DNA of 64,000 bases from Alphaproteobacteria bacterium. GTDB taxonomy: Bacteria > Pseudomonadota > Alphaproteobacteria > Rs-D84. Under the pieces are notes generated by a model. It was not told the DNA's origin, made no database searches, and worked only from the letters and a program-made list of their open reading frames with translations. Positions within the stretch are counted from its first letter, which is position 1. Each line of letters starts with the position of its first letter. Position numbers and translations under genes: made by a program. The stretch spans positions 34,834-98,833 of the forward strand of contig WRHR01000002.1 of NCBI GenBank assembly GCA_009783145.1, read 5' to 3'. This document shows, piece after piece, positions 9,213 through 57,797 of this stretch.

Positions 9213-9214
9213 CA

Positions 9215-11356
9215 TTACCATTCGTGCGGCACGCATTGCCCGCCTTGGGTTTTGTACCCGTTGAAGCATCTGCATCCGATTTTCACGCATCCGTTCGTAC
9301 CGCCCGAGGTGGAAGTAATGCCATCGGAAGAAATGCCTTCGCAGACCGCGCTATAATCCGAATACGGAGGACACATCACGACGCCGGGGCCCCAGCCCGT
9401 GCCGAAGTCGCGGATAGAGCCTTCGCCATGCACGCCCGGCGTTTCCCGCAGGCAGCTTTCGCGCAACGATGCCGAGCTTTGTCCGCCAACCGCCGTTATG
9501 ACGTTCAGGATTTCCGTCAGCCGGACCACATTGCGGCAGTTATTGATGCTCCAATCCTGCGAGTTATTGCAACTGCCGGTGCTGTCCGGAACATCGATAA
9601 TTCTGCCCGCGCCTTGGCCGCATACCATGGTGTCATAGCAGCTTGGGACCTCCGAGCTCTGCGAGCAATAATTCCTTACGCGCGCCACGGTCCAATTCGG
9701 GTTAGACCGGTTCTGCTGGTCAAAGCAGTCATATATTTCATTGACGCAGTTCTTATAGTTCTCCTTGGCAGTCGCCAATTCGTTCGCCGTGTTCGTCGTT
9801 TCTTCCTGCGCGAACTCCAGACGCTTTTGCTGCAAGTATTGCGTCGCGGCGATCTTCTGATACGCCATGTTCGTCGCTTGCTTTTTCAGCTCTTCCCCAT
9901 ACAGGTCGCAATCCGCGTTCGCGTCCAGCGCATACTTTTGCAGGATGGAACGGCGCGCGTCCGCAACCGGGCGGCGCAAGTTCGCGTACGGGTCGCCGCT
10001 GGACGTCGTATAGCCATAGCACGCCGCGCTGGTGTTGCCGGTATAAGAATTTCCGGGGTTAACGAAGTTCAAATCGGACCCGTCGTTGCTGACGGTGATA
10101 GTGCTGTTAAGATTATACGGCCCGGTGGTGCCGCCGTACGATCCGCACGCTTCATAGATTCCGTTAAAGCAGGAATCCAGAACTCGGTTGCAGACGTTGT
10201 TGTGCCCGTACTGGAACAGCTGGTATCCCCAAAGCCTCGCCAGAAAGTCCGCCGACGTCTCGGTATTGAACAGGTTTATATCCGCCATCTGGCCCACTAT
10301 ATCGCTGACGTTCATGAACGAGTTGAACAAGTTGCCATCGTTGCTGCCCGTGATAACATTGATTTGGTTTATGGTGCTGGCATAGGTCTGCAGGTTCGCC
10401 AAGATATCGGAATCCGCGCCGTTCAGAACGCTCATAAACTCATTGAAGCTGTTCAGCCCCAGCGCGCCGTTGGTGCAGTACGAAGGCGGAGTCGTCGCAT
10501 TGCATGTCTCGCTGTATCCGGCGGTCTGTCCCATCATATGGTTGTTGCACCAGTCGGTCATGTTCTGCCCTGTGGTTTTCGCATCGCGCCAGGATACGCA
10601 GTTCAGGGTCTTTTCCGCATCGGTAAGTTGGAACGCCTCGTTCATGCTCTTGCCCCTGGTCATAATCAGCATAGACAGCTGGCCCGAAACTTTCAGCAAG
10701 TCTTCTTTCGCCTGCTGCAGTTGAGCCTCGACATTGGAAAAGGTCTTTACGCGTCCGGCGCAGGCGCAGCGGCGCTGGCCCGGATTGCGCGCGGTGCAGA
10801 TTTCGTCCATGCAGGTGTAATAAGATTCCAAACAGTTGGCGTAAGCGTCCGCGGAAATCAAGCCCGTGGTCGGATCTATTATGTTGGAATAAGTTCCCGT
10901 ATACAGCCTGTTCTGCAACAAGGTGTTCGAAGCGCTGACTCCGGCGCTGGCGCGGATCGGCACATCTCTCAGCGATATGCGCGCCTGGCTCGCGCCCGCC
11001 GGCATTGTTGCGGTACGCGCGGTGACACTGCGCGCCGGACTGCCGGGACGCGTCACTACATTTCTGGGGGTCGCGGCTGAAGCGGCATTCCCGCGCTGCG
11101 CCACGCCGCGCGAGGTCTGGCCGGTTGCTGCCGTGCCTCGGCTGGTCCCGGTTGTCGCGCCGGCTTTCGCCGCCGCCGATGTCGTTTGGGCACGTCCGGT
11201 GCGATTGTTCGCGGCGCCCGAGCGCCCGGACTGCGCGGCCGCAGTGGTCTGCGCAGGCACTGTCTGGTCGTACCCGGCAATCGGATCACCCAACGCTGGC
11301 AACGCAAAAGCGGCGCAAAGCGCAAACGCAAAGTATACAAAAAACCGGCTTTTCAT
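9215..11356 (-). CDS. Large secreted Cys-rich protein A (paralog of B)
   Basis: 713 aa, signal peptide MKSRFFVYFAFALCAAFALPALG; 4-bp overlap with downstream paralog suggests an operon. Confidence 0.6.
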   Translation of the reverse strand: MKSRFFVYFAFALCAAFALPALGDPIAGYDQTVPAQTTAAAQSGRSGAANNRTGRAQTTSAAAKAGATTGTSRGTAATGQTSRGVAQRGNAASAATPRNVVTRPGSPARSVTARTATMPAGASQARISLRDVPIRASAGVSASNTLLQNRLYTGTYSNIIDPTTGLISADAYANCLESYYTCMDEICTARNPGQRRCACAGRVKTFSNVEAQLQQAKEDLLKVSGQLSMLIMTRGKSMNEAFQLTDAEKTLNCVSWRDAKTTGQNMTDWCNNHMMGQTAGYSETCNATTPPSYCTNGALGLNSFNEFMSVLNGADSDILANLQTYASTINQINVITGSNDGNLFNSFMNVSDIVGQMADINLFNTETSADFLARLWGYQLFQYGHNNVCNRVLDSCFNGIYEACGSYGGTTGPYNLNSTITVSNDGSDLNFVNPGNSYTGNTSAACYGYTTSSGDPYANLRRPVADARRSILQKYALDANADCDLYGEELKKQATNMAYQKIAATQYLQQKRLEFAQEETTNTANELATAKENYKNCVNEIYDCFDQQNRSNPNWTVARVRNYCSQSSEVPSCYDTMVCGQGAGRIIDVPDSTGSCNNSQDWSINNCRNVVRLTEILNVITAVGGQSSASLRESCLRETPGVHGEGSIRDFGTGWGPGVVMCPPYSDYSAVCEGISSDGITSTSGGTNGCVKIGCRCFNGYKTQGGQCVPHEW

Positions 11357-11421
11357 AAAAAACCCCTTCCCTATATTCGTTTTATTATATCATAAAAACT
11401 AACTGAGTGAAAGCGTTATCA

Positions 11422-11508
11422 ATGACTAATGACCAATGACTAATGTTTAATGACCAATATAAGCGCCCATTAGTCATTCGTCATTTATCATTGGTCATTA
11501 GTCATTAA
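11422..11508. repeat. Heptamer-array hairpin element, family B (second copy)
   Basis: caatgactaatgaccaatgactaatg ... cattagtcattcgtcatttatcattggtcattagtcatt. Confidence 0.8.
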
Positions 11509-11536: not shown

Positions 11537-11965
11537 TTACTCTTCGTCATTCGTTCCGACGACCTCTTCAATTTCTATCTTGCTTGCTTTCCATTCGGAT
11601 TTTTTAGCCTCGCATTTCTCGCCTCTATCGCCTTCTTTGGCGTCGCAATTCCATTCTTTTTTCATGCCGTCTTTTTTATCTTTCCATTTGGCTTTTTCCC
11701 CGGCTTTTTTATCCTTCCATTCTTTCTTCTTGCCTTCTTTTTTAGCTTTCATTTCGGCTTTCTTGGCATCTTTCGTACCTTTGCATTCCGTCTTTATGCT
11801 TTCGCGTTCTTGGGTCGCCTCTTCCGTGCCGGTGTACGATTTATCGGTAATCTCTACTGTCGCCGGCTCCTTTTTCTTGCCCAGGAAATCAAACATGCCG
11901 GCACTTGCCGCCGATATACCGATAACCAAAGCCAACCCCGAAATCATAACTTTTCTCATAAGCAA
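11537..11965 (-). CDS. Small secreted Lys/Glu-rich repeat protein (EWKDKKAGEKAKWKDKKDGMKKEW)
   Basis: 142 aa, signal peptide, internal K/E repeats with spaced Trp and Cys. Confidence 0.4.
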   Translation of the reverse strand: MLMRKVMISGLALVIGISAASAGMFDFLGKKKEPATVEITDKSYTGTEEATQERESIKTECKGTKDAKKAEMKAKKEGKKKEWKDKKAGEKAKWKDKKDGMKKEWNCDAKEGDRGEKCEAKKSEWKASKIEIEEVVGTNDEE

Positions 11966-15876: not shown

Positions 15877-15995
15877 TGGTTCTGGCGACGACCTACTCTT
15901 CCGTGGCTTAAGCCAAAGTACCATTGGCGATGCAGGGTTTCCCTGTCTGGTTCGGGATGGAACAGAGGGTGGCTCCCGCTCAATAATCACCAGAA
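15877..15995 (-). rRNA. rrf: 5S ribosomal RNA
   Basis: ...CCAUCCCGAACCAGACAGGGAAACCCUGCAUCGCCAAUGGUACU...GGAAGAGUAGGUCGUCGCCAG; flanked by 16-nt inverted processing arms 15870-15885 / 15989-16004. Confidence 0.85.
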
Positions 15996-16155
15996 CCAAT
16001 TTCTGCGCTTGTCCGCCGTAGCTTTAGCGAAGGCGGAAACATCGTAATTCAAAATATCAAAGAATCCATTCTTTCAACATACTCTTCAAGCATTCTGTTT
16101 GATTTCACGGCGCGCGAGGCGTCATGAAATCAAACAAAGATAAAAAGTCGATCAT

Positions 16156-19027
<2,872 letters not shown>

Positions 19028-19062
19028 TTTATCCAATGCTTGAAGAGTAGGTCGTAACGCGA

Positions 19063-19170
19063 GACGCGAGACACGAAACGCGAAAAAACCAACTGCTTCA
19101 AATTTGGTAAAATAACTTGAATGAGCTATAATCGCACGCGTCACGCATCTCGCGTTTCGCGTCTCGATTT
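19063..19170. repeat. Heptamer-array hairpin in the tRNA-23S spacer: (cgcgaga)x2(cacgaaa)(cgcgaaa) / inverted (tctcgcg)(tttcgcg)(tctcg)
   Basis: cgcgagacgcgagacacgaaacgcgaaaa ... cgtcacgcatctcgcgtttcgcgtctcg. Confidence 0.7.
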
Positions 19171-19603
19171 TCAGCAGTTGTAAGTTGATTCTTGTTCTTT
19201 GAATTGAATTTCATCGCGACGCAACCCGGGCCCTGAAAAAATCATAGATTTTTTTGGGTGGGAATTCGCGACGATACTTCTATTTTCAGAAAGATATTTT
19301 GAGATTATTACGATGTCTATTTAGTAGCTAGAAGCTACTAAACAAACACAAAAACCGATTCACAATATAAAGCAGATTCACATATGCGAACATATGGAAT
19401 CATTGGTAAATTCCGGGTTCGCACCGAGATGCGAACACGGGCTTGTCCGAAGACAAACAATTTACCAATGATTCCAACCTCATCAAAAAATAATACCAAA
19501 CTTGAACAGTCCCCCTTCGCGCTTTGCGCTTCGGGCGACACTCCTTCGCCTTCGCTGCTCGGCTTGGGTGGCTTGCCACCCGAAGCCTCGCAGAGGCGAA
19601 GGG

Positions 19604-19680
19604 TGGTGGGTCAGGAAGAACTCGAATCTTCGACCTCCGCTGTATCAGAGCGGCATTCTAACCAACTGAACTACTGACCC
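19604..19680 (-). tRNA. tRNA-Ile (anticodon GAU), CCA encoded
   Basis: Cloverleaf; anticodon loop CUGAUAC. Confidence 0.85.
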
Positions 19681-19685
19681 AAACT

Positions 19686-19761
19686 TGGTGGAGCCAATCG
19701 GACTCGAACCGACGACATCCACGTTGCAAACGTGGCGCTCTACCAGCTGAGCTATGACCCC
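19686..19761 (-). tRNA. tRNA-Ala (anticodon UGC), CCA encoded
   Basis: GGGGUCAUAGCUCAGCUGGUAGAGCGCCACGUUUGCAACGUGGAUGUCGUCGGUUCGAGUCCGAUUGGCUCCACCA. Confidence 0.9.
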
Positions 19762-19889
19762 GAAACAAACTCTGGGGACAACAATGGTTAAAAATTTGCT
19801 TTGCTGATACCAAAGTTTCTTCATCTTGTAAAGGGATGTTCAGACAGTCGTTTGGATTAATGACACTTCGTGAGAAGTGTTTTATCTAT

Positions 19890-21585
<1,696 letters not shown>

Positions 21586-21939
21586 TTAGAAAACTTGTTT
21601 GTTTGTCCGTGCACTAAACTAAACTGACATTGAATGTTAGTTCGTTTTACTATTTCGCAAGACAAGTATTTTAACGAGGCCACAAAATTTTGTAACCTAC
21701 TACCTGTCTAGGATATGCACTATGACAATTGTCAAAGTTTGGATTTTCCCAAATTCAACTGTCTGCACATCCCTTCTTTTTATGATTTGTATTTTGCAAC
21801 GCAAAACACCCATCATAAATCTTGATGAGCTGCTTTATTCACAATGTTGCGATTTTTCCTGGGACAACGAATCGTGTTGTTTCCATAAAACCGCAGAATT
21901 TCAGGGGTTGAAGCTTTTGTTCCAACTTGAAAGCCCGCA

Positions 21940-25611: not shown

Positions 25612-25613
25612 TA

Positions 25614-25738
25614 ATTAGCGATTAGCAATTATCAATTAGCGATTAAAAATGCAACAATATGAAATGTCCAATATACTGGACAATGTTATTACCAGTTCCC
25701 CAATTGCTAATCGCTAATTGCTAATCGCTAATTCCTTT
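25614..25738. repeat. Heptamer-array hairpin element, family A (second copy) with central TGTCCAATATACTGGACA
   Basis: ttagcgattagcaattatcaattagcgatt ... ttgctaatcgctaattgctaatcgctaatt; shared gcaacaata flank. Confidence 0.85.
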
Positions 25739-30403: not shown

Positions 30404-30525
30404 AAGTAGGAAGTAGGAGGTAGGAAGTAGGAAATAAAAAGCAACAATAAACGATGTCCATTATAATGGACAACGATTACCTTACTCTATCACTTCCTAC
30501 TTCCTACCTCCTACTTCCTACTTCT
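30404..30525. repeat. Heptamer-array hairpin element, family D: (ggaagta)xn - TGTCCATTATAATGGACA - (tacttcc)xn
   Basis: taagtaggaagtaggaggtaggaagtaggaaat...cttcctacttcctacctcctacttcctacttc; palindrome at 30455-30472. Confidence 0.85.
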
Positions 30526-31062
30526 TGTTATTAACCATCCCAACAGATACGCCGCAACGCCGATGCTGATGCAAATGTCCGCCACATTGAACGCCGGCCA
30601 GTGAAATCCCCTCACGTGAAAATCTAAAAAGTCGATCACCGCGCCAAAGCGGATGCGGTCTATCAGATTCCCCAAGGCCCCGCCGATTATCAGCGACAAT
30701 GCTATGCGCTCGTACTTTTCTTTTGCGCGAGCGAACAGGTGATAAGCCAGAAAGCCTATTATCGCGCCCGTCAGCGCGATTATAACAAACGGCGCCGAGC
30801 TCCCCAGCGCACGGAATAATGAAAAGCTGGTTCCCGGATTCCAGACGAACACGAACTTGAACCAGGATGTCATAGGCAGACTCAGCAAGTCTGCGCCATG
30901 CACGACCATGCCTCCATTGCAAAATGGCGAGTGCAAGTCGCATGCGGCGCCGAACCAATGAAATCCGACCGGAGACATTGTCATAATCCAGCCCTTGGTC
31001 AATTGGTCGAGAACGACCACCAAAAGAATAAAGAATAAAGAATAAAGAATAGATTTCTTCAT
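30511..31062 (-). CDS. lspA: Lipoprotein signal peptidase II
   Basis: 183 aa, 4 TM, conserved Asp blocks; N-terminal MKKSILYSLFFIL coded by an (aagaata) array. Confidence 0.8.
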   Translation of the reverse strand: MKKSILYSLFFILLVVVLDQLTKGWIMTMSPVGFHWFGAACDLHSPFCNGGMVVHGADLLSLPMTSWFKFVFVWNPGTSFSLFRALGSSAPFVIIALTGAIIGFLAYHLFARAKEKYERIALSLIIGGALGNLIDRIRFGAVIDFLDFHVRGFHWPAFNVADICISIGVAAYLLGWLITRSRK

Positions 31063-33004: not shown

Positions 33005-33838
33005 TTATAGCACATTAGCGCGCGCTAGTTCAACAAACTTTTCCATAGGCAATTCTTCCGCGCGCTCTTGCCCGGTTAATCCGAATTGCGACCAATCGAC
33101 GCCGGGCATAATGCTGCGTATCATTTTCCTCCGCTGGCCGAAAAGCTTCGCGGTCAGCTTTTCAACGGATGACAGCTGAATTGTTTTTTTATCTTTCGGG
33201 ATTATCTGCACAACCGCGCTTTGGACTTTCGGCGCGGGGAAAAAAGCGGTATTCGGAATATTGAATAAAATCTTCGCGTCCGCAACCAAAGCGGTAAGAA
33301 CGCTCAGCCGGCCGTATTGCTTATCGCCGACGCGCGCGACGATTCTATCCGCCACTTCGCGCTGGAACATTAAGGTCATAGAGTGGAGAGTGGAGAGTGA
33401 AGAGTGTAGTTGGTGCAGCCACTGAATTAAAAGTTCAGTTCCGATATTATACGGAAGGTTGGAACAAATTGCTAAATCATCTGCACTCTTCACTCTCCAC
33501 TCTTCACTCTTGAAATATTTCAATGCGTCGCCATAAATAACTTCCAGGCGGCCGTCTGCGGCGTTCGAAATTTTTTTCAAAATCAGCCCGGTCGCACGGT
33601 CTTTTTCAATCGCGATAACTCGCGCGGCGCCGCACTCCAGCAAAGCGCGCGTCAGGCCGCCCGGCCCTGGGCCGACTTCGACAACCGTAGCGCCCTGTAT
33701 GCCCGGCACGCTGCGCGCTATTTTCCGCGTGAGGTTCAGATCGAACAGGAAATTCTGGCCCAGCTGCTTTTTGGGTTCCAGGCCCGCATCGCGCATCATT
33801 TCTGCAACTGGGGGAAGATTTAATAATTTTTCATTCAT
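33005..33838 (-). CDS. rsmA: 16S rRNA (A1518/A1519) dimethyltransferase
   Basis: SAM motifs VVEVGPGPGGLT, NLPYNI; contains a 28-bp inverted repeat pair in-frame. Confidence 0.85.
   Translation of the reverse strand: MNEKLLNLPPVAEMMRDAGLEPKKQLGQNFLFDLNLTRKIARSVPGIQGATVVEVGPGPGGLTRALLECGAARVIAIEKDRATGLILKKISNAADGRLEVIYGDALKYFKSEEWRVKSADDLAICSNLPYNIGTELLIQWLHQLHSSLSTLHSMTLMFQREVADRIVARVGDKQYGRLSVLTALVADAKILFNIPNTAFFPAPKVQSAVVQIIPKDKKTIQLSSVEKLTAKLFGQRRKMIRSIMPGVDWSQFGLTGQERAEELPMEKFVELARANVL
33379..33512. repeat. Inverted heptamer arrays (gagtgaa/gagtgga ... cactctt/cactctc) inside the rsmA coding sequence
   Basis: atagagtggagagtggagagtgaagagtgtag and ctgcactcttcactctccactcttcactcttg, 71 bp apart, bracketing the NLPYNI codons. 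Confidence 0.85.
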
Positions 33839-34464
33839 ATCTGCTTTCTGCCGCCGAACGCAATGCTCAGCGTTCCGTCGTCGATGTAATCCAGGTCGCC
33901 GCCCAAAGGCACGCCGGATGCCAGTTCTGTAAATTGTAGGGGCGAAATATTTTTCGCCCCAGGGGCGAATGATAATTCGCCCCTACAAACCTGTGCGACA
34001 TAATGCTGGGTTGTTTTTCCTTCCACCGTATTGGGCAGGGCAAAAATGATTTCGACTATTTTTTCATCATCGATACGCGCGGGCAGACTTGCGATATTCA
34101 AATCTTCGGGAGTGGTTCCCGCGGCGCCGGACAGCAAGCCGCCGATGATATGATAGCGCCCCTTGAACACGCCGGATTTTTCCAAAGTCCAAACATCGCC
34201 CAAATCGCGGACCAGACATAACTGGCCGTTAGCGCGCGCGGGATCGCGGCAGAATTCGCAATTATCACAATCGGTCAAACACCCGCATACGGGACAAGGA
34301 CGTACAGATTCGGCAGTATCATTCAGCGCTGCGGCCAGGGCAGCGGCCCTGCCTGTTTTGTCCTGCAACAGGGCCAAGACTATGCGCTGCGCCGCCCGCC
34401 CTCCGACCCTGGGCAGCTTTGCGAATTGTTTAATAAGCTTTTCGATTTTCTGATTCATCGACAA
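33835..34464 (-). CDS. recR: Recombination protein RecR
   Basis: HhH, C4 zinc finger CPVCGCLTDCDNCEFC, Toprim; carries a 53-bp in-frame double hairpin. Confidence 0.85.
   Translation of the reverse strand: MSMNQKIEKLIKQFAKLPRVGGRAAQRIVLALLQDKTGRAAALAAALNDTAESVRPCPVCGCLTDCDNCEFCRDPARANGQLCLVRDLGDVWTLEKSGVFKGRYHIIGGLLSGAAGTTPEDLNIASLPARIDDEKIVEIIFALPNTVEGKTTQHYVAQVCRGELSFAPGAKNISPLQFTELASGVPLGGDLDYIDDGTLSIAFGGRKQI
33935..33987. repeat. Tandem double hairpin (ggggcgaa-N-ttcgcccc)x2 framed by tgtagg...cctaca, in-frame inside recR
   Basis: tgtaggggcgaaatatttttcgccccaggggcgaatgataattcgcccctaca encodes CRGELSFAPGAKNISPL on minus. Confidence 0.8.
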
Positions 34465-35863: not shown

Positions 35864-36976
35864 TCAATGAAACACAAAGCAATCTATCTGCTGCGTTTTG
35901 GCCGCCTGGCATGCGCTCTGCGCCGCGCTTTCCGACAGGCCGTTCGCACGCACGCGGAACATTCCGCTGGGGGAAGGCTCAACCACCGCTGACAGTCCTG
36001 TAATATTACGAACGCGCGTCACTTGCGATTCTGCGGCCGCCCGTGATCCGAAAGCACCAAATTGAACGCCAGTCCCGCCCGCGTTTTGCACGGGAACAAT
36101 TGCCGCGGGCTTGCTTAACGGCTTCGTTACGGCCACGGGCGGCGGCGCATAATTATTCTGCACCGCAACCGGCGCCGCGCCAGTTCCTAGTATTGTAAAT
36201 CCTTTATCCAGCATCCTTGTCGAAACCGCGGCGCGAATATCCTTGGTTTGCGCGCCCAGAACAACGCTCATCACGCGCCGACCGTCGCGTTTGGCTGTTG
36301 CCACCAGCGAATATTTGGACTTGTTCGTATATCCTGTCTTCATACCGTCGCATCCCGGATACGACGCCAGCAGCCGGTTCCCGTTGGTATAAGTCTGCCC
36401 GTTATAAGTCCAGCTTTGAATCCCGAAATATTTCCAATATTGCGGGAAATGCTTGTAAACCGCCATAGACAGCAATGCGATATCGCGCGCGCTTGACAGG
36501 TGGTCGTCGTCCGGCAATCCGGACGAGTTCTCGAAATTAGTCTTGGAAAGCCCGATTTCCGTCGCGACCTGTGTCATCAATGACGCGAAGTTTCCCTCCT
36601 TTCCACCCTTCAGGTTTTCCGCCAAAACCCGCGCGACATCATTCGCGCTGTGCACCGCGACGGCTTTTATCGCGTCTTCAACCCTTATCTTCGACCCCGC
36701 GGCCAGGCCCAGTTTTACAGGCAAAGCATTCGCCGCGCTTTGCGAAACGATTAAGTGGTCGTCCAGATTAAGACGCTTGTGCTCCAACGCGTCGAATGTC
36801 AGATACAGCGTCATGATTTTCGTAAGAGATGCCGGATAATTCAGGTCGTTCGCGTTCTCGGAATAAAGCACTTTGCCCGTATCCAAGTCCGCGACAAGCA
36901 CGGCGTTATAGTCGGCTGCAAACGCCGATACCGAAAGAATAAAGAATAAAGAATAAAGAATAAAGAATCTCTTCAT
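35864..36976 (-). CDS. dacA: D-alanyl-D-alanine carboxypeptidase (PBP5/6 class) with C-terminal SPOR domain
   Basis: SxxK (ASLTK), SxN (SAND), KTG motifs; C-terminal VQFGAF...SPOR-like; signal peptide MKRFFILYSLFFIL from a repeat arm. Confidence 0.8.
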   Translation of the reverse strand: MKRFFILYSLFFILSVSAFAADYNAVLVADLDTGKVLYSENANDLNYPASLTKIMTLYLTFDALEHKRLNLDDHLIVSQSAANALPVKLGLAAGSKIRVEDAIKAVAVHSANDVARVLAENLKGGKEGNFASLMTQVATEIGLSKTNFENSSGLPDDDHLSSARDIALLSMAVYKHFPQYWKYFGIQSWTYNGQTYTNGNRLLASYPGCDGMKTGYTNKSKYSLVATAKRDGRRVMSVVLGAQTKDIRAAVSTRMLDKGFTILGTGAAPVAVQNNYAPPPVAVTKPLSKPAAIVPVQNAGGTGVQFGAFGSRAAAESQVTRVRNITGLSAVVEPSPSGMFRVRANGLSESAAQSACQAAKTQQIDCFVFH

Positions 36977-37082
36977 AGCATGAAAGAGTACAAAATTTTC
37001 ATATAAAAGGTCAATTAATAAAAGTACCGCGCAACCTAGATTACGCGGCCCTAATTTATTCTTTATTCTCTATTCTTTATTC
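36937..37082. repeat. Heptamer-array hairpin element, family E: (aagaata)x3 - spacer - (tattctt)x3; left arm codes the dacA signal peptide, right arm abuts the pyk stop
   Basis: gaaagaataaagaataaagaataaagaat ... ttattctttattctctattctttattcttta. Confidence 0.8.
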
Positions 37083-37083
37083 T

Positions 37084-38472
37084 TTAATCCAAATCTCTCA
37101 ACGAAATTTTATCCCCTTCGACTATTACCAGCTTTCCGCGCGTGACGCCAAAGCGACGCGCCGCCTCGGACGCGTCCTTTTGTCCGAACATCTGCTCGTT
37201 AAAAATCGGATAGACCCCGCGCGAAAGGCACAACTGATTCGCATCTATCGCATCGTTGCAGACCGCGATTATCGGCATATCGGGTTTCCGACAGGAAACA
37301 GCCGTCGCAATTTCAGTCCCCGCGTCAAACACCACGATCGCCGCGGCTTTGTTCAAATGAGCCATCGACGCGACGCTGCGCGACCAGTCGTTTTCGGGCA
37401 AGTTCTCGATTCGCGTCCAATCCTGTCCGTTCTCATAAACGTCCCCGTCGGCGTTGGTCACGATTTTCGACATAGTATCGATCACGTTTATGGGATTGTC
37501 GCCAATGGTCGTTTCTTCGCTGGTCATAACGCAGTCCGCGCGCAAATAAGACGCCAGCGCGACGTCGGAAATTTCCGCGCGCAAGGGGAACTCGCTGTGA
37601 ACCATGCTGCCCAGCATCTGCGTTGCGACGATGATCGGCTTGTTCATCTTGCGGCACATGCGGATGCTTTCGCGCTGCAGCGCGGGAAGCTTTTCAAAAG
37701 GTATTTCCACGGCCAAATCCCCGCGCGCGAACATAATAGCGTCGGAAATCTGAATGATTTCTTCCAGCCGTTCCAACGCCTGGGGCCGTTCTATTTTCGA
37801 AATGATTTTAATAGGCTGACTGGAACGAGCCGTGATAAAATCGCGGGCCTCGGCCACGTCTTCGGGCCGCTGCACGAAAGAAATCGCAACCCAATCGGGG
37901 TTCTTGGTCAGCGCGTATTCCAAATCCGTACGGTCTTTTGGCGTCAGCACCGAAGTTTCTATATCGGTATCGGGAATATTGAACCCGCGGCGCGACCAGA
38001 TTTCGTCGCCGCGCTTTACTTTTGTCGTCACGGAGCAGAGCCTGGATTCAACCGTGCAATTGTTATTCAGAACTTCCAGCTCTATCTTTCCATCATTCAA
38101 TAAAACGCGGTCGCCGACTTTCAAGGACTTCAAGACATCGTTATCCGGCAGGCAGACGCGGGTTTCATCGCCGCGAGCAGGATTATTGTCCAGAACGAAT
38201 TCCTGACCGACTTTCAAAGGATAGTGGTTTTCGGTTTTAAAGTCGCCTATGCGGTGCTTTGGCCCCTGCAAGTCCGCGATGATCGCAATCGGACGGCCCA
38301 GTTCTTCGGATATCTGTCGTATCAAGTCAATCTTTTGCCCCTGGACATCGCCGGTGTCATGCGAAAAATTCAGGCGGCAGGCATTCACGCCCGCATCAAC
38401 CATCGACTTCAAAGTCTTGTAATCCTGGCTGTTCGGTCCGATGGACGCGATTATTTTAGTGAGTTTGGTCAT
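37084..38472 (-). CDS. pyk: Pyruvate kinase
   Basis: MTKLTKIIASIGP..., conserved K+/Mg sites, 462 aa. Confidence 0.85.
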   Translation of the reverse strand: MTKLTKIIASIGPNSQDYKTLKSMVDAGVNACRLNFSHDTGDVQGQKIDLIRQISEELGRPIAIIADLQGPKHRIGDFKTENHYPLKVGQEFVLDNNPARGDETRVCLPDNDVLKSLKVGDRVLLNDGKIELEVLNNNCTVESRLCSVTTKVKRGDEIWSRRGFNIPDTDIETSVLTPKDRTDLEYALTKNPDWVAISFVQRPEDVAEARDFITARSSQPIKIISKIERPQALERLEEIIQISDAIMFARGDLAVEIPFEKLPALQRESIRMCRKMNKPIIVATQMLGSMVHSEFPLRAEISDVALASYLRADCVMTSEETTIGDNPINVIDTMSKIVTNADGDVYENGQDWTRIENLPENDWSRSVASMAHLNKAAAIVVFDAGTEIATAVSCRKPDMPIIAVCNDAIDANQLCLSRGVYPIFNEQMFGQKDASEAARRFGVTRGKLVIVEGDKISLRDLD

Positions 38473-46438: not shown

Positions 46439-49400
46439 TTATTTATTACGATTACGCACGCGTTCCATCAGAGTGAATATAGCCGGTGTGACCATGAAAG
46501 TCCAGAACAATGATGCCAGGATTCCGCCGCAAATAACCGCGGCCATGCTGCTTTTCATCCCGTCCACGGACCAAAGCTGCGGCACCATTCCGGCCGCAAC
46601 CGCAATCGTGGCCATCAGAATCATACGTTTTTTGTCGTTAAACTCCGCCCACAGCGCGCTTGTCCGCGATTCCCCCTGGTTTATCCTGGCAATCGTCGGC
46701 TCCAACAGCAGAATATTGTTGTTCACGACCAAGCCCACCAGCATGACTATGGCCAGCATCGCGGCCACATTGATGGTGGCCCCCGACAGGAACATCAATA
46801 TGAACACTCCGGAAAAGCTGGTGAGTATTCCCGTCGCAATCGTAAACGGATGCACCCAGGTATTCATCATCGCCGCCAGCAGCATAAAAGTCAAAATCGT
46901 CGCCAGCAGAAACGCCTGCCCGATTTCCCCGGTCGTCTCGGACTGGATTTCGCTCATCCCGCCGAACTGCGCGTAATAACCGGGCGCCCAGTCGATGGTT
47001 TTCAGCGCCGATTCTATCCTGCTCTGCACGGGACCTATGGTGCTTTTACCCAGATTGATATTTATTTCAGTAATGCGGTTTTTATCCAGGCGGCGGATAT
47101 CCGGCGTTGCTTGCGCGAATTTTATCTCGCCCAATTCCGACATCGGCACCAGGCCCTTTTGCGACGCGACGAACACGCTGTCGAACATCTCGCGATTTTT
47201 GAACGGCTTCGCGAATTCCAAGACTATCGGGTATTCCTTGCCCGCTTCCTTGTATTTGTAAGAGTCATTTCCAAACAATGCGGTTCGCAAGGCGGTGCCG
47301 GCGTACGCATTTTTTATTCCCCAGAAACTCATCGCGTCGGCGTCCGGAACAAACGTGATTTCCATGCCGGGGGCTTGCTGCGCGCGAACCGCGCTTTGGA
47401 TTTCCGGAATTCGGTTCAGCAGCTCTATGACCTGATCCGCGTATGCTTCGCGCTTTGTATCGTCTTCACCATTTATGTCCAAAATCATGTCGGACGAGTA
47501 ATCGCCGCCCATAGCTTCGCCCGCGCGAATCTGAATTTCCGCGTCCGGAATCTGAGACAATGCGGGCAGCATAACTTGGGCCAAGCGCTTGTCCGAAAGT
47601 TTTCTTTTCCCATACGGCACCAGCTCTACCTTTACGGTTACATTCTGAACGCCGCGCTCCCCGATTTTTACCGAAGTGGATTTTACTTCCGTAAATTCGC
47701 GCAGCTTTTCCTCGATCTGCAGCGCGATCTTTTCGGCCTTCGCATAAGAGCTTCCCGCCGGCGCCCGCGCCGTGACCGTGATTTGACTTGCGTCTATATC
47801 AGGCCTGAACTCGTTCCCGACCCAACGCATCGGAATCAAGCTGAGCACCAAAACAGCCGCGGCAATACCGACCGCTTGCCATGGTTTTTTCAACTGCCAA
47901 TCATAAATCGGTTTGAACCAAGAAAGAGAATTGTCATTTTTCTTTTCTTTATTCTTTATTCTTTTTTCTTTATTCTTTCTTAAAATCTTCGCGATCATCA
48001 TCGGCGTCAGGGTAAAGCTGAACATCAAAGACAATATCGTCAAAAACACGACGGTCAATCCAAACTGAGCCATAAACTGACCCGCAATCCCGCCCATGAA
48101 CGCGATTGGCAGAAACACGACTATATTCGTGCCCGTCGCCGCCAGGATCGGAACCACGACTTTTTTGGTGCCGTCGACCGCCGCTTGTTCCGGCGTTTTC
48201 CCGACATCTAATTCTTTCAGCGCCGCCTCTATCAGAACTATCGCGTTGGAGATCAAAGTCCCCAAAGCCGACGAGCACGCCAGCAAAGTCATCGCGTTAA
48301 TCGTAAATCCCGCCGCGTCCATAAACAGGAATCCCGCAACCAAAGATGCCGGTATCACAATGCCGGCTATTACCGTGGACCGCCAGTTGCGCGTAAAAAA
48401 TAAAAGCGTCAAAACAGTAAGGGCCAACCCCAAAACTATCCCAAGAATCGTGTTGTTTGTTTCCTTTGAAACAGCAACAGAAGAATCGGATATTATTTCC
48501 ATCCGCGCATCCGGATAGCGCGTCTGCATGTCTTTTTCCAGTGCGGGCAATTGCTTATGCAATTGGTTGGCAATCTTTATGGCATTTCCGTCAGTGGCTT
48601 TTACCACGGATAAAATCACGACCGGCTTGCCGTCATAACGCGCGCCGGTCTCGATATCGCGCGCGGCATCTTTGACATCCGCGATGTCGCGCAAGGCAAA
48701 GTTCTGGCCTTCGGCCGTAGTGATATGCAGGCCCTTGATATCGTCGACAGATTGGAATTCTCCAATAAAGCGTATGTTGTTGGAGTCCTGCCCCGCCTCT
48801 ATCTTTCCGCCCGGCACGTTCAGGTTATGGGCGGCCAGCGCCCCCACTATATCCATAACGGCAACGCCGCGCGCGGCCATCAGCTCTGGATTCATAAATA
48901 TGCGAACAGCGCGGCTTTCCCCGCCGAACAGAGAAACGGAGGCAACGCCCTTCACAGCCGTAATTTTATTCGCAAGCGCGTCGTTGACATAGAATTCCAA
49001 GTCGCGCGGGTTGGTCCCGGTCAGAACTATATCCACAACCGATTGCTGCAGAGGGTTCAGCTTTTCCACAACCGGCTGTTTTAATCCTTCGGGGAATTCG
49101 TTCGAAATCGCGTCCAGCTTTGCCTTCACTTCGGCCGCCTTGTCATTGACATTCACGCCGATGTTGAATTCCGCCATGACGAAGCCGCCGTTTTCAAAGG
49201 CTTGGGATTGTATGCGCTTTATTCCCGCAACTTCGGACATGGCATCTTCCGCTTTTTGAACGACCTGGGTTTCTATTTCCGCAGGAGACGCGCCGGGATA
49301 GACAAGCGTCGCCGTAACCATGGGCAGGTCTATGGGGGGTATGCGCTCCACATTCATTTTCGGGAACGCGACAATCCCCAGCACCACCCACAAAAGTACG

Positions 49401-49466: not shown

Positions 49467-49590
49467 AGGTAGGAGGTAGGAAGTTGGAGGTAGGAGGTAA
49501 GAGAGTAAAAGTTTTTTCTTTTAATTTATAGAATAAATTCTTAATCACCAACTTCCTACCTCCTACTTCCTACTTTCTACTTTTGTCCCT
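49467..49590. repeat. Heptamer-array hairpin element, family D with central ttggtgattaagaatttat core (inverted relative to the 53330-53462 copy)
   Basis: taggtaggaggtaggaagttggaggtaggaggtaagagagtaaaag ... accaacttcctacctcctacttcctactttctac. Confidence 0.8.
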
Positions 49591-52231: not shown

Positions 52232-53311
52232 TTACGATTGCTTCAGGATTTCTTCAGCGATGTTAGCAACGGCATTGTTTTCAATCTTCGCCTTTGCCGC
52301 CATCTTTTTCAGGCGCGCCCCATTGCTAAACAATTCCTCCAGCGTTGCGGATAGCCACCTTGAAGTAAATTTGCTCTGCGGGATTGCAATGCCGCCGCCT
52401 TGCGAAGCAAAAACTTCCGCATTCGCCGCCTGGTCGGGGTTTATCCCCAACGGGACCAGAATCGCCGGACGGCCAACGGTCTGCAATTCCGCGACCGTGC
52501 TTGCGCCGCTGCGCCCTATCACCAAGTCCGCCGCCGCCACTTCCGATGCCATATCATGAATGAACGACAGCACGTTCGCCTTCACGCTGTTGCCGGCATA
52601 GAACCTTTGCAAGCGCGCGACGTTTTCCGGCCGGGTCTGATGCACTATGAACAGCTTCTTTACGATGGATGACGGAAGAAGGATGATGGACGACGGAACC
52701 ACGTCGTCCAAAATCTGCGCCCCTAACGAACCACCGGTGACAAGAAGACGGATGATGGATGATGGATGATGGATGATGGATGACATAAATTCTTTACGAA
52801 CAGGTAATCCTGTATAAACAACTTTCAACTTTCCATCATCCGTCATCCGTCTTCCATCATCCATTCCCTCCACCTTTGGAAAACTTGTCATCAAAGTATT
52901 TACCCAGCGCAGGGCGAATTTATTCGCGCGACCAATTGCCGCGTTCTGCTCGTGCAATAATGTCGGGATTTTCCAAACGCGCGCCGCCAAAATTGCAGGA
53001 ACGGACGCATAGCCGCCGAATGCCACAACTCTGTCCGGTCGGAAAACCATAAAGCGCAGCGTCAGAGCAACCGCCGAAAAGCCGATCTTCATCAATGCGA
53101 AGACTTGCTGCAACTTTCCCTTGGCGCCGACGCCGGACGCCCAAACCCAAGCGATTCCCGCGCGCGGAGGCTTATTCTTTTTCACCATATCCATAACGCG
53201 CGAATCGGTCGAGATTATCACGCGATTATGGCGCCGCACCAATTCTTCGGCAACGACCAGCGCTGGAAAAACATGCCCGCCGGTTCCCCCGGTCGCAATC
53301 CATATCTTCAT
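52232..53311 (-). CDS. murG: UDP-GlcNAc:undecaprenyl-PP-MurNAc-pentapeptide GlcNAc transferase
   Basis: GGTGGHVFPAL N-terminus, C-domain LLVTGGSLGA; linker holds an inverted (ggatgat) array element. Confidence 0.85.
   Translation of the reverse strand: MKIWIATGGTGGHVFPALVVAEELVRRHNRVIISTDSRVMDMVKKNKPPRAGIAWVWASGVGAKGKLQQVFALMKIGFSAVALTLRFMVFRPDRVVAFGGYASVPAILAARVWKIPTLLHEQNAAIGRANKFALRWVNTLMTSFPKVEGMDDGRRMTDDGKLKVVYTGLPVRKEFMSSIIHHPSSIIRLLVTGGSLGAQILDDVVPSSIILLPSSIVKKLFIVHQTRPENVARLQRFYAGNSVKANVLSFIHDMASEVAAADLVIGRSGASTVAELQTVGRPAILVPLGINPDQAANAEVFASQGGGIAIPQSKFTSRWLSATLEELFSNGARLKKMAAKAKIENNAVANIAEEILKQS
52748..52867. repeat. Inverted heptamer arrays (ggatgat)x5 ... (atcatcc)x4 inside the murG inter-domain linker, in-frame
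   Basis: gacggatgatggatgatggatgatggatgatggatgacat ... ccatcatccgtcatccgtcttccatcatccattcc; codes MSSIIHHPSSII and GMDDGRRMTDDG around the conserved GLPVR block. Confidence 0.85.
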
Positions 53312-53329: not shown

Positions 53330-53462
53330 TATAAAGTAGGAGGTAGGAAGTAGGAAGTTGGTGATTAAGAATTTATATCTCGAAATAAAAGCTCTTACTC
53401 TCTTATTTCCTACCTCCTACCTCCTACCTCCTACTTCCTACTTCCTACTTTCTACTTCCACT
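53330..53462. repeat. Heptamer-array hairpin element, family D between ftsW and murG (right arm overlaps the ftsW 3' end)
   Basis: agtaggaggtaggaagtaggaagttggtgattaagaatttat ... ttcctacctcctacctcctacctcctacttcctacttcctactttctacttcc. Confidence 0.8.
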
Positions 53463-54597
53463 TGTCCTCTCGCACCAATGCCAATATCATACCAAACATC
53501 AGGCAGAATGCAACAAAAGACGAGCCGCCGTAAGATATGAACGGCAAAGTCATTCCCTTTGGCGGAAACAGCCCCAGCGCCGACATCACGTTTATGCAAA
53601 CTTGAGTGCCGAACAAGGCGAACAATCCGCCGCATGCATAAAAAACAAACTTGTCCTTGGCTCGCGTCGCGTCTGTAGCCAGGCGTTTCATCACGTATAA
53701 AAATCCCAGCAAAAGGACGCAGGCTATTATGGCGCCGGAATCTTCCGCTATCGCGGAAAAAACAAAGTCCGTATGCGCGTCGGGCAGCGATTGCTTTATA
53801 AAGCTGTCTTCGCCGCGGCCGAATAATCCGCCGTGCTTTACCGCCTCTACCGATTTTTTAATCTGATAGTTATCGCCGCCGCCGGCAAGACCCAAGAACC
53901 CCAGCACCCTCATTCGTACGTGCGACATGGTGAAGAATGCGAACACTCCACCCGACGCACCGACGCCCGCAAAAATCGGAAGAAAATACATCGGCAAGCC
54001 CGCCAGAAAAATCATAGAAGCGAACACGATTAAATAAAGAACGAACGAGCCGAAATCCGGATGAGTCAATATAATCAAAATCGCGGGCAGAAATAATGCC
54101 AGATATGCCGGCCAGCCGTCCCATTTCCATGCTCGCTTTGCAAAGAATATATCGCCCGGCGCCAGCTTTTCAATGCGCGTCAAGAACCATGCGGTTAAAA
54201 TTATGAAGCCCGGTTTCAACAAGTCGCTGGGCATAACGGACGCAAAGCCCAGATTGACCCAGCGCGCGGATCCTTTGACCGCTGCGGGCATGACCAAGGT
54301 CGCAATCAGCAGCAGCCCGCATATGACCACGTTCACGAACGCGACGGCGAAAACTTGCCTTTTGCTTAAGAATGACGACACAAGCAGCGTTATCAGCCCC
54401 AGTATGTAAAAGGGTATCGCTTTCAGCAGAAAGAAATGCCACGGCTGGGGCGGATTCATACGCTCGGCCGCCACAGAGCCGGCGGACACCATCGCCCACA
54501 TGCCGACGAATATAAGCGCGATAACGCACCAGAACAGACGGCGGTCTATTTCAAAATACCAGCTTGTTAATTTGCTCTCTTCGCTTCGGCGCAGCAT
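53452..54597 (-). CDS. ftsW: Cell division/peptidoglycan polymerase FtsW (SEDS family)
   Basis: 10 TM SEDS topology, 381 aa, dcw-cluster context. Confidence 0.85.
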   Translation of the reverse strand: MLRRSEESKLTSWYFEIDRRLFWCVIALIFVGMWAMVSAGSVAAERMNPPQPWHFFLLKAIPFYILGLITLLVSSFLSKRQVFAVAFVNVVICGLLLIATLVMPAAVKGSARWVNLGFASVMPSDLLKPGFIILTAWFLTRIEKLAPGDIFFAKRAWKWDGWPAYLALFLPAILIILTHPDFGSFVLYLIVFASMIFLAGLPMYFLPIFAGVGASGGVFAFFTMSHVRMRVLGFLGLAGGGDNYQIKKSVEAVKHGGLFGRGEDSFIKQSLPDAHTDFVFSAIAEDSGAIIACVLLLGFLYVMKRLATDATRAKDKFVFYACGGLFALFGTQVCINVMSALGLFPPKGMTLPFISYGGSSFVAFCLMFGMILALVREDKWK

Positions 54598-57793: not shown

Positions 57794-57797
57794 TCTA

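Follow-up and report, generated by a model that had tools for sequence, protein, structure and literature searches.

Inverted heptamer arrays around the NLPYNI codons of rsmA are one locus of a lineage-specific population of heptamer-repeat hairpins in a gut alphaproteobacterium

[quoted passage not shown] Its identity is supported by the open reading frame, a Pfam RrnaAD match (E = 4e-46), PDB matches to RsmA/TFB1M, and an AF2 model with a mean pLDDT of 88.5. The codons of the NLPYNI motif (residues 127-132) are flanked by two arrays of a 7-nt unit in inverted orientation:

33005-33838, minus strand: rsmA, 277 aa
33480-33511, minus strand: mRNA-upstream arm, AAGAGTG-type heptamer array, sense strand purine-rich
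33410-33479, minus strand: native rsmA DNA between the arms, DDLAICSNLPYNIGTELLIQWLHQ, motif IV strand and next helix
33380-33409, minus strand: mRNA-downstream arm, CACTCTT-type array, sense strand pyrimidine-rich

The upstream arm is translated as FKSEEWRVKSA (residues 109-119), the connector from motif III (GDAL) to the motif IV strand, and the downstream arm as LHSSLSTLHS (residues 144-153), where a helix ends and a loop leads into the LMFQ strand. The segment between them is (near-)invariant among 30 relatives. Tandem Repeats Finder (TRF) recovered AGAGTGG x3.9 at 33380-33406 (95% matches) and TCTTCAC x4.6 at 33480-33511 (88% matches). The arms are about 90% complementary over 30-33 nt: an ungapped alignment gave a 33-nt stem with 3 mismatches, and a repeat search returned 24-nt arms at 33380-33403 / 33480-33503 (92%), extending to 40 nt at 33380-33419 / 33471-33510 (85%). 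The best inverted-partner score is 24.5-25, compared with at most 9.5 in shuffled flanks. When a 161-nt stretch of the gene was folded, it reached -63.4 kcal/mol as RNA (z = -9.4) and -41.7 kcal/mol as DNA (z = -10.0), and 0 of 200 shuffles folded as stably. Each arm is a direct heptamer array without internal dyad symmetry or tag. The rsmA DNA is 100% identical on four fetched contigs from independent assemblies, and is therefore not an assembly artefact; the identical protein is reported on five contigs. Because all other copies of the window species are 100% identical, they are uninformative on copy-number change or inversion. The species is present in SRR5248970, SRR6220664, ERZ27257305 and JGI 3300002504.

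The open reading frame is intact, and the arrays are read in frame within variable connectors of reduced model confidence. Residues 111-120 form the second-lowest ten-residue block of the AF2 model (mean pLDDT 64, the lowest being residues 21-30 with 62), and residues 141-150 have a pLDDT of 78. Both loops vary in length and sequence across all relatives, and repeat-derived inserts are also found in relatives at the N-terminus and in the loop near residue 216. Each loop differs in length by about one residue from E. coli RsmA, and by +4 and +1 residues from the closest array-free relative (L001); array-free relatives have loops of nearly equal length. L003, L004 and L089 are further array-free sisters. 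In L005 and L108, a loop is filled by other repeat types. Both descriptive claims of the sequence-only reading therefore hold: the inverted repeat pair around the NLPYNI codons is confirmed by TRF, alignment and shuffles, and the protein length is unchanged relative to E. coli to within about one residue per loop.

Arrays of the same kind are spread over the window, which contains 42 arrays of 7- or 8-nt units with at least 3 copies each; 33 of these make up 17 inverted pairs. The pairs are mostly intergenic or inside rRNA inserts; intragenic cases comprise the pairs in rsmA and murG, the rRNA inserts and several single arrays. A period of 7 or 8 was assigned to 49 of 71 TRF rows. Under stringent settings, 15 arrays have period 7 and none has period 5, 6, 8 or 9, and shuffled sequence yielded no stringent period-7 array. 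At least 10 heptamer families occur within the 64 kb, recurring at several loci and in several species. Individual copies include the following:

112-236: AATTAGC pair, 63-nt spacer with the same palindromic core as the pair at 30404-30524
1037-1116: AATGACT tight hairpin, 9-nt loop
2534-2633: inverted pair of the 8-mer AAGAGTAG, 37-nt spacer
3086-3490: bracket around an S23p ORF downstream of dnaX, AGGTTGG (3086-3118) and TACCTCC (3460-3490)
11421-11507: AATGACT tight hairpin, 9-nt loop, second copy of the element at 1037-1116
18394-18472: 23S rRNA hairpin of ATAAGTT heptamers, in an insertion of about 170 nt at Rfam LSU model position 583/584
19057-19166: ACGCGAG pair in the rRNA operon spacer
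21367-21401: 16S rRNA array of the 8-mer AGAGTAAG, in a 168-nt insertion near the 5' end of the gene
25613-25733: AATTAGC pair, 56-nt spacer with a core related to the TGTCCATTATAATGGACA palindrome
30404-30524: lspA-yidC intergenic AAGTAGG pair, 30/30 complementary, 58-nt spacer with the palindrome TGTCCATTATAATGGACA
36934-37086: AAAGAAT pair, 86-nt spacer, spanning the pyk / D-Ala-D-Ala carboxypeptidase junction
49467-49582: AGGTAGG / ACTTCCT pair upstream of acrB
52750-52864, minus strand: murG pair, GGATGAT x4.9 and TCCATCA x4.7, in murG (52232-53311)
53330-53463: AAGTAGG / TTCCTAC pair between ftsW and murG
55684-55743: ATTTACG tight hairpin, 10-nt loop
59262-59327: GATTTAC pair, with a partner arm (59303-59327) that TRF missed
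60585-60663: ATTTACG tight hairpin, 6-nt loop

Several of these copies are related to one another. The two AATGACT hairpins are homologous and keep the same order of unit variants, the spacers of the 53330-53463 and 49467-49582 pairs are homologous in opposite orientations, and a variant unit of the 30404 pair is mirrored exactly between its arms. The 16S rRNA insertion sits near SSU model position 80, and the S23p ORF (23S rRNA intervening-sequence protein) adjoins dnaX and has no reverse transcriptase beside it. An insert in recR (33936-33986) carries GTAGGGGCGAA as an inverted doublet, unlike the rsmA arms. An Rfam search of the window returned rRNA and tRNA matches only, and a Pfam scan of about 50 window ORFs found no transposase, RAYT, recombinase, invertase or reverse transcriptase.

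In murG, the arms (52750-52783 and 52832-52864) stand on either side of a 48-nt spacer coding KLKVVYTGLPVRKEF, the same layout as in rsmA, as had been proposed from the sequence. The pattern extends well beyond these two genes, to the 17 pairs of the window and to related genomes. The further proposal of a targeted or selected process stands in part: the layout is non-random, but the process is not aimed at conserved genes, most pairs being intergenic or in rRNA inserts.

Across the array-rich loci, the element consists of two inverted arms of about 25-40 nt, each with some 3.5-6 copies of the 7-nt unit and in one case 8. Neighbouring arrays of the same family are inverted in 38 cases and direct in 1, the spacer measures 47-86 nt in 25 of the 38 inverted pairs, and in all 18 strongly skewed pairs the arm rich in purines is the 5' one. 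The heptamer vocabulary is redundant, with 27 redundant families observed where 4.5 are expected (maximum 13 in 2000 simulations); this simulation of exact redundancy replaced single-linkage clustering, which chained nearly everything together. The array ends showed no conserved termini, target-site duplications or GTAG-type tags.

The nearest relatives of the window are gut alphaproteobacterial MAGs, including Candidatus Enterousia. Among GTDB species representatives, the best 80 loci, mostly Enterousia-like, had no inverted repeat at the rsmA site; the informative relatives were found by protein search and exact look-ups. A metagenome scan with the window RsmA returned three relatives at 71-73% identity, a number kept low because the search patterns contained the array peptides, and L090 and L108 (more than 62% identical) are likewise array-bearing. 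Overall, 152 of the 169 sequences examined (the window and 168 loci) are free of heptamer arrays. Of the 120 closest RsmA proteins, about 20 have a 7-residue periodicity in both loops.

In at least nine related species, the two RsmA loops both contain arrays that are complementary to each other, and at least seven different heptamers are used. Among them are AAGAGTG in L169, GATTTCT in L085, ATGGAYG in L086 and L088, GGGGACT in L087, AATTAGC in L171, AAAATTG in L172 and GTGATTC in L090. Four further species have one arm or mismatched arms. In L005 and L108, AAAATTG is found only in loop 1, L022 possesses only arm 2, and L170 combines an arm 1 of the L087 family with a perfect L090-family arm 2; from L170 and L022, it appears that the rsmA arms can turn over singly. 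MurG relatives likewise have 7-residue-periodic peptides in the two loops that match the window murG arrays. Orthologous intergenic sites hold array pairs of different families, and L170 has such a pair at the site orthologous to 36934-37086. The sharing of heptamer families between species is incongruent with their relatedness. With the loops masked, a neighbour-joining tree of RsmA proved star-like in its deep branches, and gains and losses could not be counted on it.

The arrays are more conserved than their surroundings. Between the window and L169, third positions are identical at 16 of 24 sites in the arrays, 92 of 237 in the rest of the gene and 9 of 23 in the spacer, and in six other species pairs the arrays are likewise more conserved than synonymous sites. 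The third positions between the arms diverge like the rest of rsmA, which indicates that no contiguous element was inserted. The comparison shows arrays that are held at the nucleotide level and are not drifting. Mismatches in the rsmA stems across species, read on the sense strand, comprise 6 G·U and 15 A·C, and those of the window pairs, read on the plus strand, 16 G·T and 11 A·C. With no excess of G·U, selection at the mRNA level is unsupported; a further constraint or drive would act on DNA, and not on wobble-tolerant mRNA pairing or on the peptide. A register test for whole-arm copying gave a weak difference (11.3% mismatch in register, 13.8% when shifted by one unit).

The rsmA pair thus belongs to a population of heptamer-repeat hairpins that is specific to the lineage and spread over the genome. 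To explain it, we favour, with a probability of about 0.5, heptamer hairpin arrays resembling STRR (short tandemly repeated repetitive) sequences, which would act on the level of DNA and persist only where loops are permissive, a mechanism that we infer from the patterns above. Slipped-strand replication of a 7-nt unit would create and homogenise the arrays, and intrastrand or fork template switching, a known mechanism of quasipalindrome correction, would then turn a nearby tract into an inverted copy. Template switching would account for same-family neighbours being nearly always inverted, and for arrays that largely replace loop sequence and do not merely add to it. Purifying selection on RsmA would spare arrays only where any sequence is tolerated, presumably the pair of surface connectors that flank the motif IV strand and helix. 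These connectors lie one typical arm-to-arm distance apart, hence a pair that brackets NLPYNI; most simply, the two loops are the sole permissive sites within the usual arm distance of 50-90 nt. The arms would be translated as low-complexity linker peptides, leaving the enzyme intact.

Slippage alone fails to explain both the conservation at the nucleotide level and the limited vocabulary common to several species. Under neutral slippage and drift, one would not expect arrays to be more conserved than synonymous sites, nor family sharing at odds with relatedness, nor the handedness (18 of 18) and preferred spacer length. Such features suggest either selection on a DNA structure or a dedicated copying factor. 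A hairpin kept at one position despite changes in sequence is a classic signature of a functional structure. A bolder reading, which we offer tentatively and think may well be wrong, is a clade-specific DNA-level copying or maintenance system (molecular drive) in gut alphaproteobacteria. It would install inverted, handed heptamer pairs (5'-purine / 3'-pyrimidine) at a fixed spacing of about 60-75 nt, take the heptamers from a small vocabulary common to species, keep the arrays at the nucleotide level even in essential genes and rRNA, and swap the family at a site arm by arm. If so, the hairpins would function as genome punctuation or as a structural signal, or else serve an unknown enzyme as substrate, and would offer a handle on the unexplained STRR and LSSR (long simple sequence repeat) heptamers of cyanobacteria and Xanthomonas.

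Alternatively, the hairpin could function as RNA. The arms would pair in rsmA mRNA and in operon transcripts as a 25-33 bp duplex, where RNase III cleavage or ribosome stalling would tune expression or punctuate polycistronic transcripts, as in excised rRNA intervening sequences. The predicted rsmA RNA stem is indeed very stable, its position is kept through sequence changes in at least nine species, and the 5'-purine / 3'-pyrimidine handedness holds for transcripts of either direction. The same kind of hairpin occurs in the 23S and 16S inserts and around the S23p ORF, a classic RNase III-processed architecture, and the Coxiella intervening sequence has GACAGAT heptamer repeats at its RNase III site (PMC4990558). 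However, on the transcribed strand G·U and A·C mismatches number 6 and 15 in rsmA, and 11 and 16 for the window genes, which are mostly on the minus strand. Cleavage within a housekeeping coding region would also destroy the message, single or non-complementary arms are kept in L022 and L170, and no Rfam family matches. We consider this explanation unlikely.

It also seems improbable that the arrays are non-autonomous mobile elements of REPIN or MITE type, with a trans-acting enzyme inserting arms, or arm-spacer-arm units, at hairpin-prone or permissive sites; at rsmA, two arms of the same family would have landed on either side of the motif. Families do recur at unrelated loci and in different species, in a pattern incongruent with relatedness. 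The two AATGACT hairpins are copies of each other, one spacer core is found between different arms, one spacer is found in both orientations, and the inverted doublets, whose spacer measures about 50-90 nt, are reminiscent of REPINs (PMC3116915). Yet between the arms rsmA and murG keep their own conserved coding sequence, whose synonymous divergence is ordinary, and the array ends lack the conserved termini, target-site duplications and GTAG-type tags mentioned above. The families, at least 10 in 64 kb, are many more than a single transposase could be expected to handle, and no transposase was found, nor any RAYT, among the approximately 50 window ORFs scanned.

That the hairpin might mediate DNA inversion, as the sequence-only reading had suggested, is unsupported, and we regard an invertible switch, in which the 70-nt segment would be reversed by recombination between the arms to switch RsmA off and on, as very improbable. 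The arms are inverted repeats of about 30 bp, the flipped window segment is in frame and free of stops, and two intergenic loci have homologous spacers in opposite orientations. However, the flipped form lacks NLPYNI, its frame is interrupted by stop codons in 7 of 10 relatives, the orientation is the same in all four fetched assemblies of the species, and no invertase or recombinase domain was found among the window ORFs scanned. The architecture is moreover shared by rRNA inserts and tight hairpins, where inversion would be meaningless. A switch to an alternative protein was rejected as well, the inverted frame being open in the window and closed in most relatives. Chance resemblance or an assembly artefact, for which only the short arm length speaks, has a negligible probability given the shuffle controls, the identical DNA in four fetched assemblies that differ in sample and pipeline, and the recurrence of the layout in at least nine other species.

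STRR heptanucleotide repeats of heterocystous cyanobacteria were reportedly described by Mazel et al. in 1990, and Vioque is said to have found STRR arrays inside an RNase P RNA gene in 1997. The arrays described here resemble STRRs in their 7-nt unit, their short tandem arrays, their several dispersed families per genome and their tolerance within a structural RNA gene as helix extensions. They differ in being almost obligatorily inverted pairs with a preferred spacing, and in flanking a catalytic motif in coding sequence at positions kept across species. The host is also a gut alphaproteobacterium and not a heterocyst-forming cyanobacterium, so that the arrays would work like STRRs without being members of the named cyanobacterial families. 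The GGGGACT heptamer of L087 is the complement of STRR1 CCCCAGT, which may be a coincidence given about 55 families. Heptamer repeats have been known from cyanobacteria since 1990 and from Xanthomonas since 2015. In the literature, we found no description of these arrays in Alphaproteobacteria.

Related repeats include GGGGAYT in Nostoc (PMC4692102) and, in Xanthomonas, GGGAATC heptamers over-represented in one lineage (Rehm et al. 2015, PMC4692102). In Xanthomonas, two close convergent (inverted) arrays occur in 70-75 cases per genome, and arrays lie at or overlap gene ends and recur at shared intergenic positions in related species, where their length and sequence vary (PMC4692102). Lineage-enriched heptamer arrays, inverted pairs and shared intergenic sites are thus common to both systems. 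In contrast, the Xanthomonas arrays belong to one G-rich family, discussed as G-quadruplex-forming, and the window has at least 10 mostly A/T-rich families; bracketed protein motifs and rRNA arrays, both present here, are not reported in that study. A G-quadruplex reading was dropped here because most families are A/T-rich, as was a programmed frameshift signal, since the units do not fit the X XXY YYZ pattern of slippery heptamers.

Rickettsia palindromic elements (RPEs) are palindromic repeats lying in frame in protein-coding genes (PMC10969869). As in those Alphaproteobacteria, hairpin DNA is here translated within conserved enzymes at fold-compatible sites. An RPE, however, is one contiguous insert of about 100-150 bp from a conserved sequence family, whereas rsmA has two separate 30-nt tandem-heptamer arms with native gene DNA between them and a net length change of only 1-4 codons per loop; the pair thus shares with RPEs the in-frame, tolerant site, but is not the single contiguous element of an RPE or MITE. 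REPINs are REP doublets that form hairpins and are mobilised by RAYT transposases (PMC3116915). They share with the arrays inverted sequences of about 25-35 nt with a spacer, more doublets than singlets and genome-dispersed copies. Each REP is by itself a palindrome with a GTAG/CGTC tag, and REPs are found outside genes, with one family per RAYT, whereas the arms here are non-palindromic, untagged and of many families, and can lie in genes around native sequence.

The likeness to rRNA intervening sequences rests on the heptamer hairpins in the 23S and 16S inserts and on the S23p ORF between inverted arrays. A long stem at the tip of an rRNA helix is found for the rRNA copies only, and the rsmA and murG pairs lie in mRNA coding sequence. 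This clade is unusually informative, combining many families per genome with near-obligatory inverted pairing, handedness and preferred spacing. Its copies in conserved genes (rsmA, murG, recR-type loops and rRNA) allow orthologous sites to be compared against a synonymous-site clock in a dozen species, and show the extent to which an essential enzyme tolerates repeat-encoded peptides beside a catalytic motif. A practical consequence of the arrays is that gene calls become inflated and fragmented, that 16S and 23S change in length, and that phylogenies inferred from alignments of these MAGs can go astray.

The inverted repeat pair in rsmA is real, it is not random, and its scope goes beyond what the sequence-only reading had seen. 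It represents a single locus in a genome-wide system of arrays, tandem runs of a unit of 7 nt (sometimes 8 nt). Its two arms lie within the gene as follows:

33005-33838, minus strand: rsmA, 277 aa (Pfam RrnaAD, E = 4e-46)
33380-33406/09: period-7 array AGAGTGG, 3.9 copies, inside rsmA (TRF)
33480-33511: period-7 array TCTTCAC, 4.6 copies, inside rsmA (TRF)

The arrays are mutually reverse-complementary over 24 nt at 92%, 33 nt with 3 mismatches, or 40 nt at 85%. The best inverted partner for the arm scores ~25, where shuffled flanks give 9.5 or less, and the 161-nt stretch folds better than all 200 shuffles (z = -9.4 as RNA, -10.0 as DNA). The DNA of the pair is 100% identical on four fetched contigs of independent assemblies, and a protein identical to the window RsmA is reported on five contigs. 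On the coding strand, the upstream arm encodes FKSEEWRVKSA (residues 109-119) and the downstream arm LHSSLSTLHS (residues 144-153), with NLPYNI (residues 127-132) between them. The two connectors flanking this block, loops 1 and 2, differ by ~1 residue each from those of E. coli RsmA, in agreement with the unchanged length claimed from the sequence, and by +4 and +1 residues from the closest array-free relative.

Of the 71 repeat rows that TRF called in the window, 49 have a period of 7 or 8. A stringent scan for periods 5 to 9 returned 15 arrays, all of period 7, and its shuffle control (five trials) gave no period-7 array and one period-5 match. Among the 42 window arrays with at least three copies, 33 make up 17 inverted pairs, most of them at gene junctions. 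The likeness to murG is borne out, and the layout extends beyond these two genes to an rRNA insert and the flanks of an S23p ORF:

52750-52783 / 52832-52864: murG pair, inverted arrays flanking the conserved block KLKVVYTGLPVRKEF
15880-21586, minus strand: complete rRNA operon (5S, 23S, two tRNAs, 16S) with oversized genes
18394-18472: heptamer hairpin, held in a ~170 nt 23S rRNA insert at Rfam LSU model position 583/584
21367-21401: 8-mer array, held in a 168 nt 16S rRNA insert near the 5' end, model position ~80
3086-3490: array pair around an ORF for S23p (23S rRNA intervening-sequence protein, PF05635), not within an rRNA gene but directly after dnaX

LSU position 583/584 is the helix-25 hairpin of E. 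coli 23S, a classic intervening-sequence site. The 16S rRNA gene is 1697 nt long and has a further 21-nt insert near model position 188. The S23p ORF is exactly flanked by inverted heptamer arrays (AGGTTGG / TACCTCC), and together they resemble an intervening-sequence-type cassette in an mRNA context. Recurring families, that is, arrays with a common unit, are AATTAGC, AATGACT, AAGTAGG, AAAGAAT, AAATCGT, AAAGAGC and the 8-mer AAGAGTAG.

The closest relatives come from uncultured alphaproteobacteria of the gut, many of which bear the label Candidatus Enterousia, and their best RsmA identity to the window is 74-76%; no homologue between 76% and 100% was found. The system is lineage-restricted: 152 sequences out of 169 (window plus 168 loci) are free of heptamer arrays, and the rsmA site of 80 GTDB representatives showed no inverted repeat. 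An array-rich subset of relatives carries 0.5-1.4 arrays per kb, with inverted rsmA arrays in exactly the two window loops, mostly with other units (L numbers denote relatives' loci):

L169: AAGAGTG, the window unit
L085: GATTTCT
L086, L088: ATGGAYG, the unit of the window murG pair
L087: GGGGACT
L171: AATTAGC, a unit that the window has between genes
L172: AAAATTG in both loops
L005, L108: AAAATTG in loop 1 only, loop 2 being taken by a different palindromic insert
L090: GTGATTC
L091: degenerate arrays, complementarity retained

A 7-residue periodicity marks both loops in ~20 of the 120 closest RsmA proteins, and likewise either side of K-x-x-VYTGLPVR in MurG relatives. Orthologous intergenic sites (lspA-yidC, the carboxypeptidase gene 5' end, trbI-cagX) hold differing pair families in the window, L088 and L170. 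With arrays in the relatives' rsmA, MurG and intergenic sites, the layout is neither limited to two genes nor missing from related genomes, and positions persist while families turn over.

The anatomy, established on the window together with 11 array-rich loci (38 pairs in all), is paired, inverted, handed and spaced. Same-family arrays within 450 nt of each other are inverted in 38 cases and direct in one. Arms measure ~25-40 nt, and 25 of the 38 spacers measure 47-86 nt (median 57) whether they hold a coding block, a palindromic core or an ORF; a minority of pairs form tight hairpins, their loops 4-27 nt long. The purine-rich arm is the 5' arm in 18/18 pairs with strongly skewed composition, a property identical on both strands. 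The vocabulary is limited, since 55 canonical units over 82 loci give 27 redundancies, compared with 4.5 expected and a maximum of 13 in 2000 simulations, and units are common to different species at non-orthologous loci.

Why the pair brackets NLPYNI probably follows from where RsmA tolerates inserts. Loops 1 and 2 vary in length and sequence in all relatives, and the intervening block is nearly invariant. In an AlphaFold2 model of the window RsmA (mean pLDDT 88.5), the stretches encoded by the arrays, one the connector leading into the motif IV strand and the other the last part of the helix after it, are among the least confident parts (pLDDT 64 at residues 111-120 and 78 at 141-150; lower still only at 21-30, with 62). 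Relatives' RsmA also carry repeat-derived inserts at the N-terminus and in a loop near residue 216, loop 2 of L005 and L108 is filled by unrelated palindromic elements, and RecR behaves comparably in one loop. In RsmA, no tolerant sites other than these two loops lie a typical arm-to-arm distance from each other. The proposal of a targeted or selected process holds in its non-random part; purifying selection probably filters where arrays survive, in place of a process aimed at catalytic motifs.

In recR (33835-34464, minus strand), an in-frame insert of ~11 residues lies within 33920-33990. It is a GTAG-tagged, REP-like inverted doublet of GTAGGGGCGAA (33936, plus; 33986, minus), which TRF also called as a 23-nt repeat. 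L085 and L171 have other inserts in the corresponding loop, and the GTAGGGGCG palindrome filling rsmA loop 2 of L108 is similar. Such inserts constitute a second, RPE/REPIN-like class of intragenic repeat in the clade.

The two arms of rsmA can change separately: in L170 a degenerate arm 1 from the L087 family stands with a perfect, non-complementary arm 2 from the L090 family, and L022, from an array-poor genome, has arm 2 only, of the L085 family. Array blocks may be copied whole, as suggested by variant units in common order in two AATGACT hairpins (1037-1116, 11421-11507), by the variant AAAATGG at one common place in L005, L108 and L172, and by a variant perfectly mirrored between the arms of the 30404 pair; a general register test, however, is only weakly positive (11.3% versus 13.8% mismatch). 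Family sharing does not follow relatedness, the window being nearer by RsmA and KefB to L087 (other family) than to L169 (same family); the single-gene tree is star-like, too much so for counting events. Maintenance acts at the nucleotide level. Third-codon identity between the window and L169 is 16/24 in the arrays, 92/237 in the rest of the gene and 9/23 in the block between the arms, and arrays likewise exceed synonymous sites in six other species pairs of common family. This better conservation argues against free drift and, with ordinary third-position divergence outside the arrays, rules out recent transfer of the whole rsmA segment.

For the mechanism we infer DNA-level slippage and template switching, with a probability of about one half. 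Slippage of the 7-nt unit would create and homogenise arrays, as many are 100% perfect, and template switching from one tract to another close by, of the kind known from quasipalindrome correction, would create or renew the inverted partner and so account for the 38:1 inverted bias, the short range and the loops being largely replaced, not lengthened. These two processes alone leave unaccounted for the limited shared vocabulary, the conservation above synonymous background, and the handedness and preferred spacing, and here a function of the DNA structure or a dedicated enzyme could come in. That the hairpins function as RNA is doubtful, because stem mismatches on the transcribed strand show no G·U excess over A·C (6 versus 15 in rsmA across species; 11 versus 16 in window pairs, mostly minus-strand), which argues against selection on wobble-tolerant RNA pairing.

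The array pairs belong with heptamer-repeat hairpins. Among the closest kinds are the cyanobacterial STRR heptamers, which occur even inside the RNase P RNA gene. The rsmA unit of L087:926-1051 (GGGGACT / AGTCCCC) is that of STRR1 (CCCCAGT), a match that may be coincidental given ~55 observed families. Another such kind is the GGGAATC arrays of Xanthomonas, which often come two together, convergent and inverted, at the ends of genes (PMC4692102). The copies in rRNA and around S23p match rRNA intervening sequences with S23p, such as that of Coxiella, with heptamer repeats at an RNase III site (PMC4990558). Rickettsia palindromic elements are similarly tolerated in frame inside enzymes, but are single contiguous inserts (PMC10969869). 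A REPIN/MITE-like mobile element is an unlikely origin. REPINs share the inverted doublet with spacer, yet are GTAG-tagged, individually palindromic, extragenic and RAYT-linked (PMC3116915). No earlier account of such arrays in Alphaproteobacteria came up in the literature that could be searched. What is new in these hairpins is that pairing is obligatorily inverted and has a handedness, that each genome holds many families, that maintenance is at the DNA level, and that fixed positions within essential genes and rRNA are occupied across species.

The suggested DNA inversion between the rsmA arms is highly improbable: the flipped frame stays open in the window, but the flip removes NLPYNI and meets stop codons in 7/10 relatives, assembled copies on the four fetched contigs show one orientation only, and no recombinase was found among the scanned window ORFs. 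One hint in its favour, the AAGTAGG elements 49467-49582 / 53330-53463 with homologous spacers in opposite orientation, is equally well explained by insertion in either orientation. Relative to their common conserved, ribosome-binding-site-like flank AAAAACCTYYGGTTT the spacer is reversed, and it would have been either flipped between inverted arms or inserted both ways.

Both AATGACT hairpins directly follow a small GC-rich stem and T run (intrinsic-terminator-like) of the upstream minus-strand gene, a hint that terminators are the sites where this family lands or from which it grows. Unpaired AAAGAGC / AAAGAAT arrays lie in coding sequence (969-1003, 9174-9205, 31023-31051, 47945-47978, 57754-57784, 61860-61898), mostly within 40 codons of the start of the longest ORFs; their products may be signal-peptide-like or membrane stretches, or the starts may have been called too far upstream. 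Series of large ORFs without a Pfam match (419-487 aa and one of 986 aa) occupy 56483-63368 and 6330-9290, with an AAATCGT-family hairpin at every junction between them. A tandem repeat of period 33/66 nt (11649-11799; 2-4 copies, ~70% matches) lies inside ORF 11537-11965, which has no Pfam match. The 18-nt palindrome TGTCCATTATAATGGACA has five copies in the window (169, 23471, 25665, 30455, 52172; 0.03 expected), every one in an intergenic core and three of them flanked by heptamer arms, of different families. It is preceded at two sites (23438, 52139) by another perfect palindrome, TTCTAGTATACTAGAA, and both may be operator or promoter modules.
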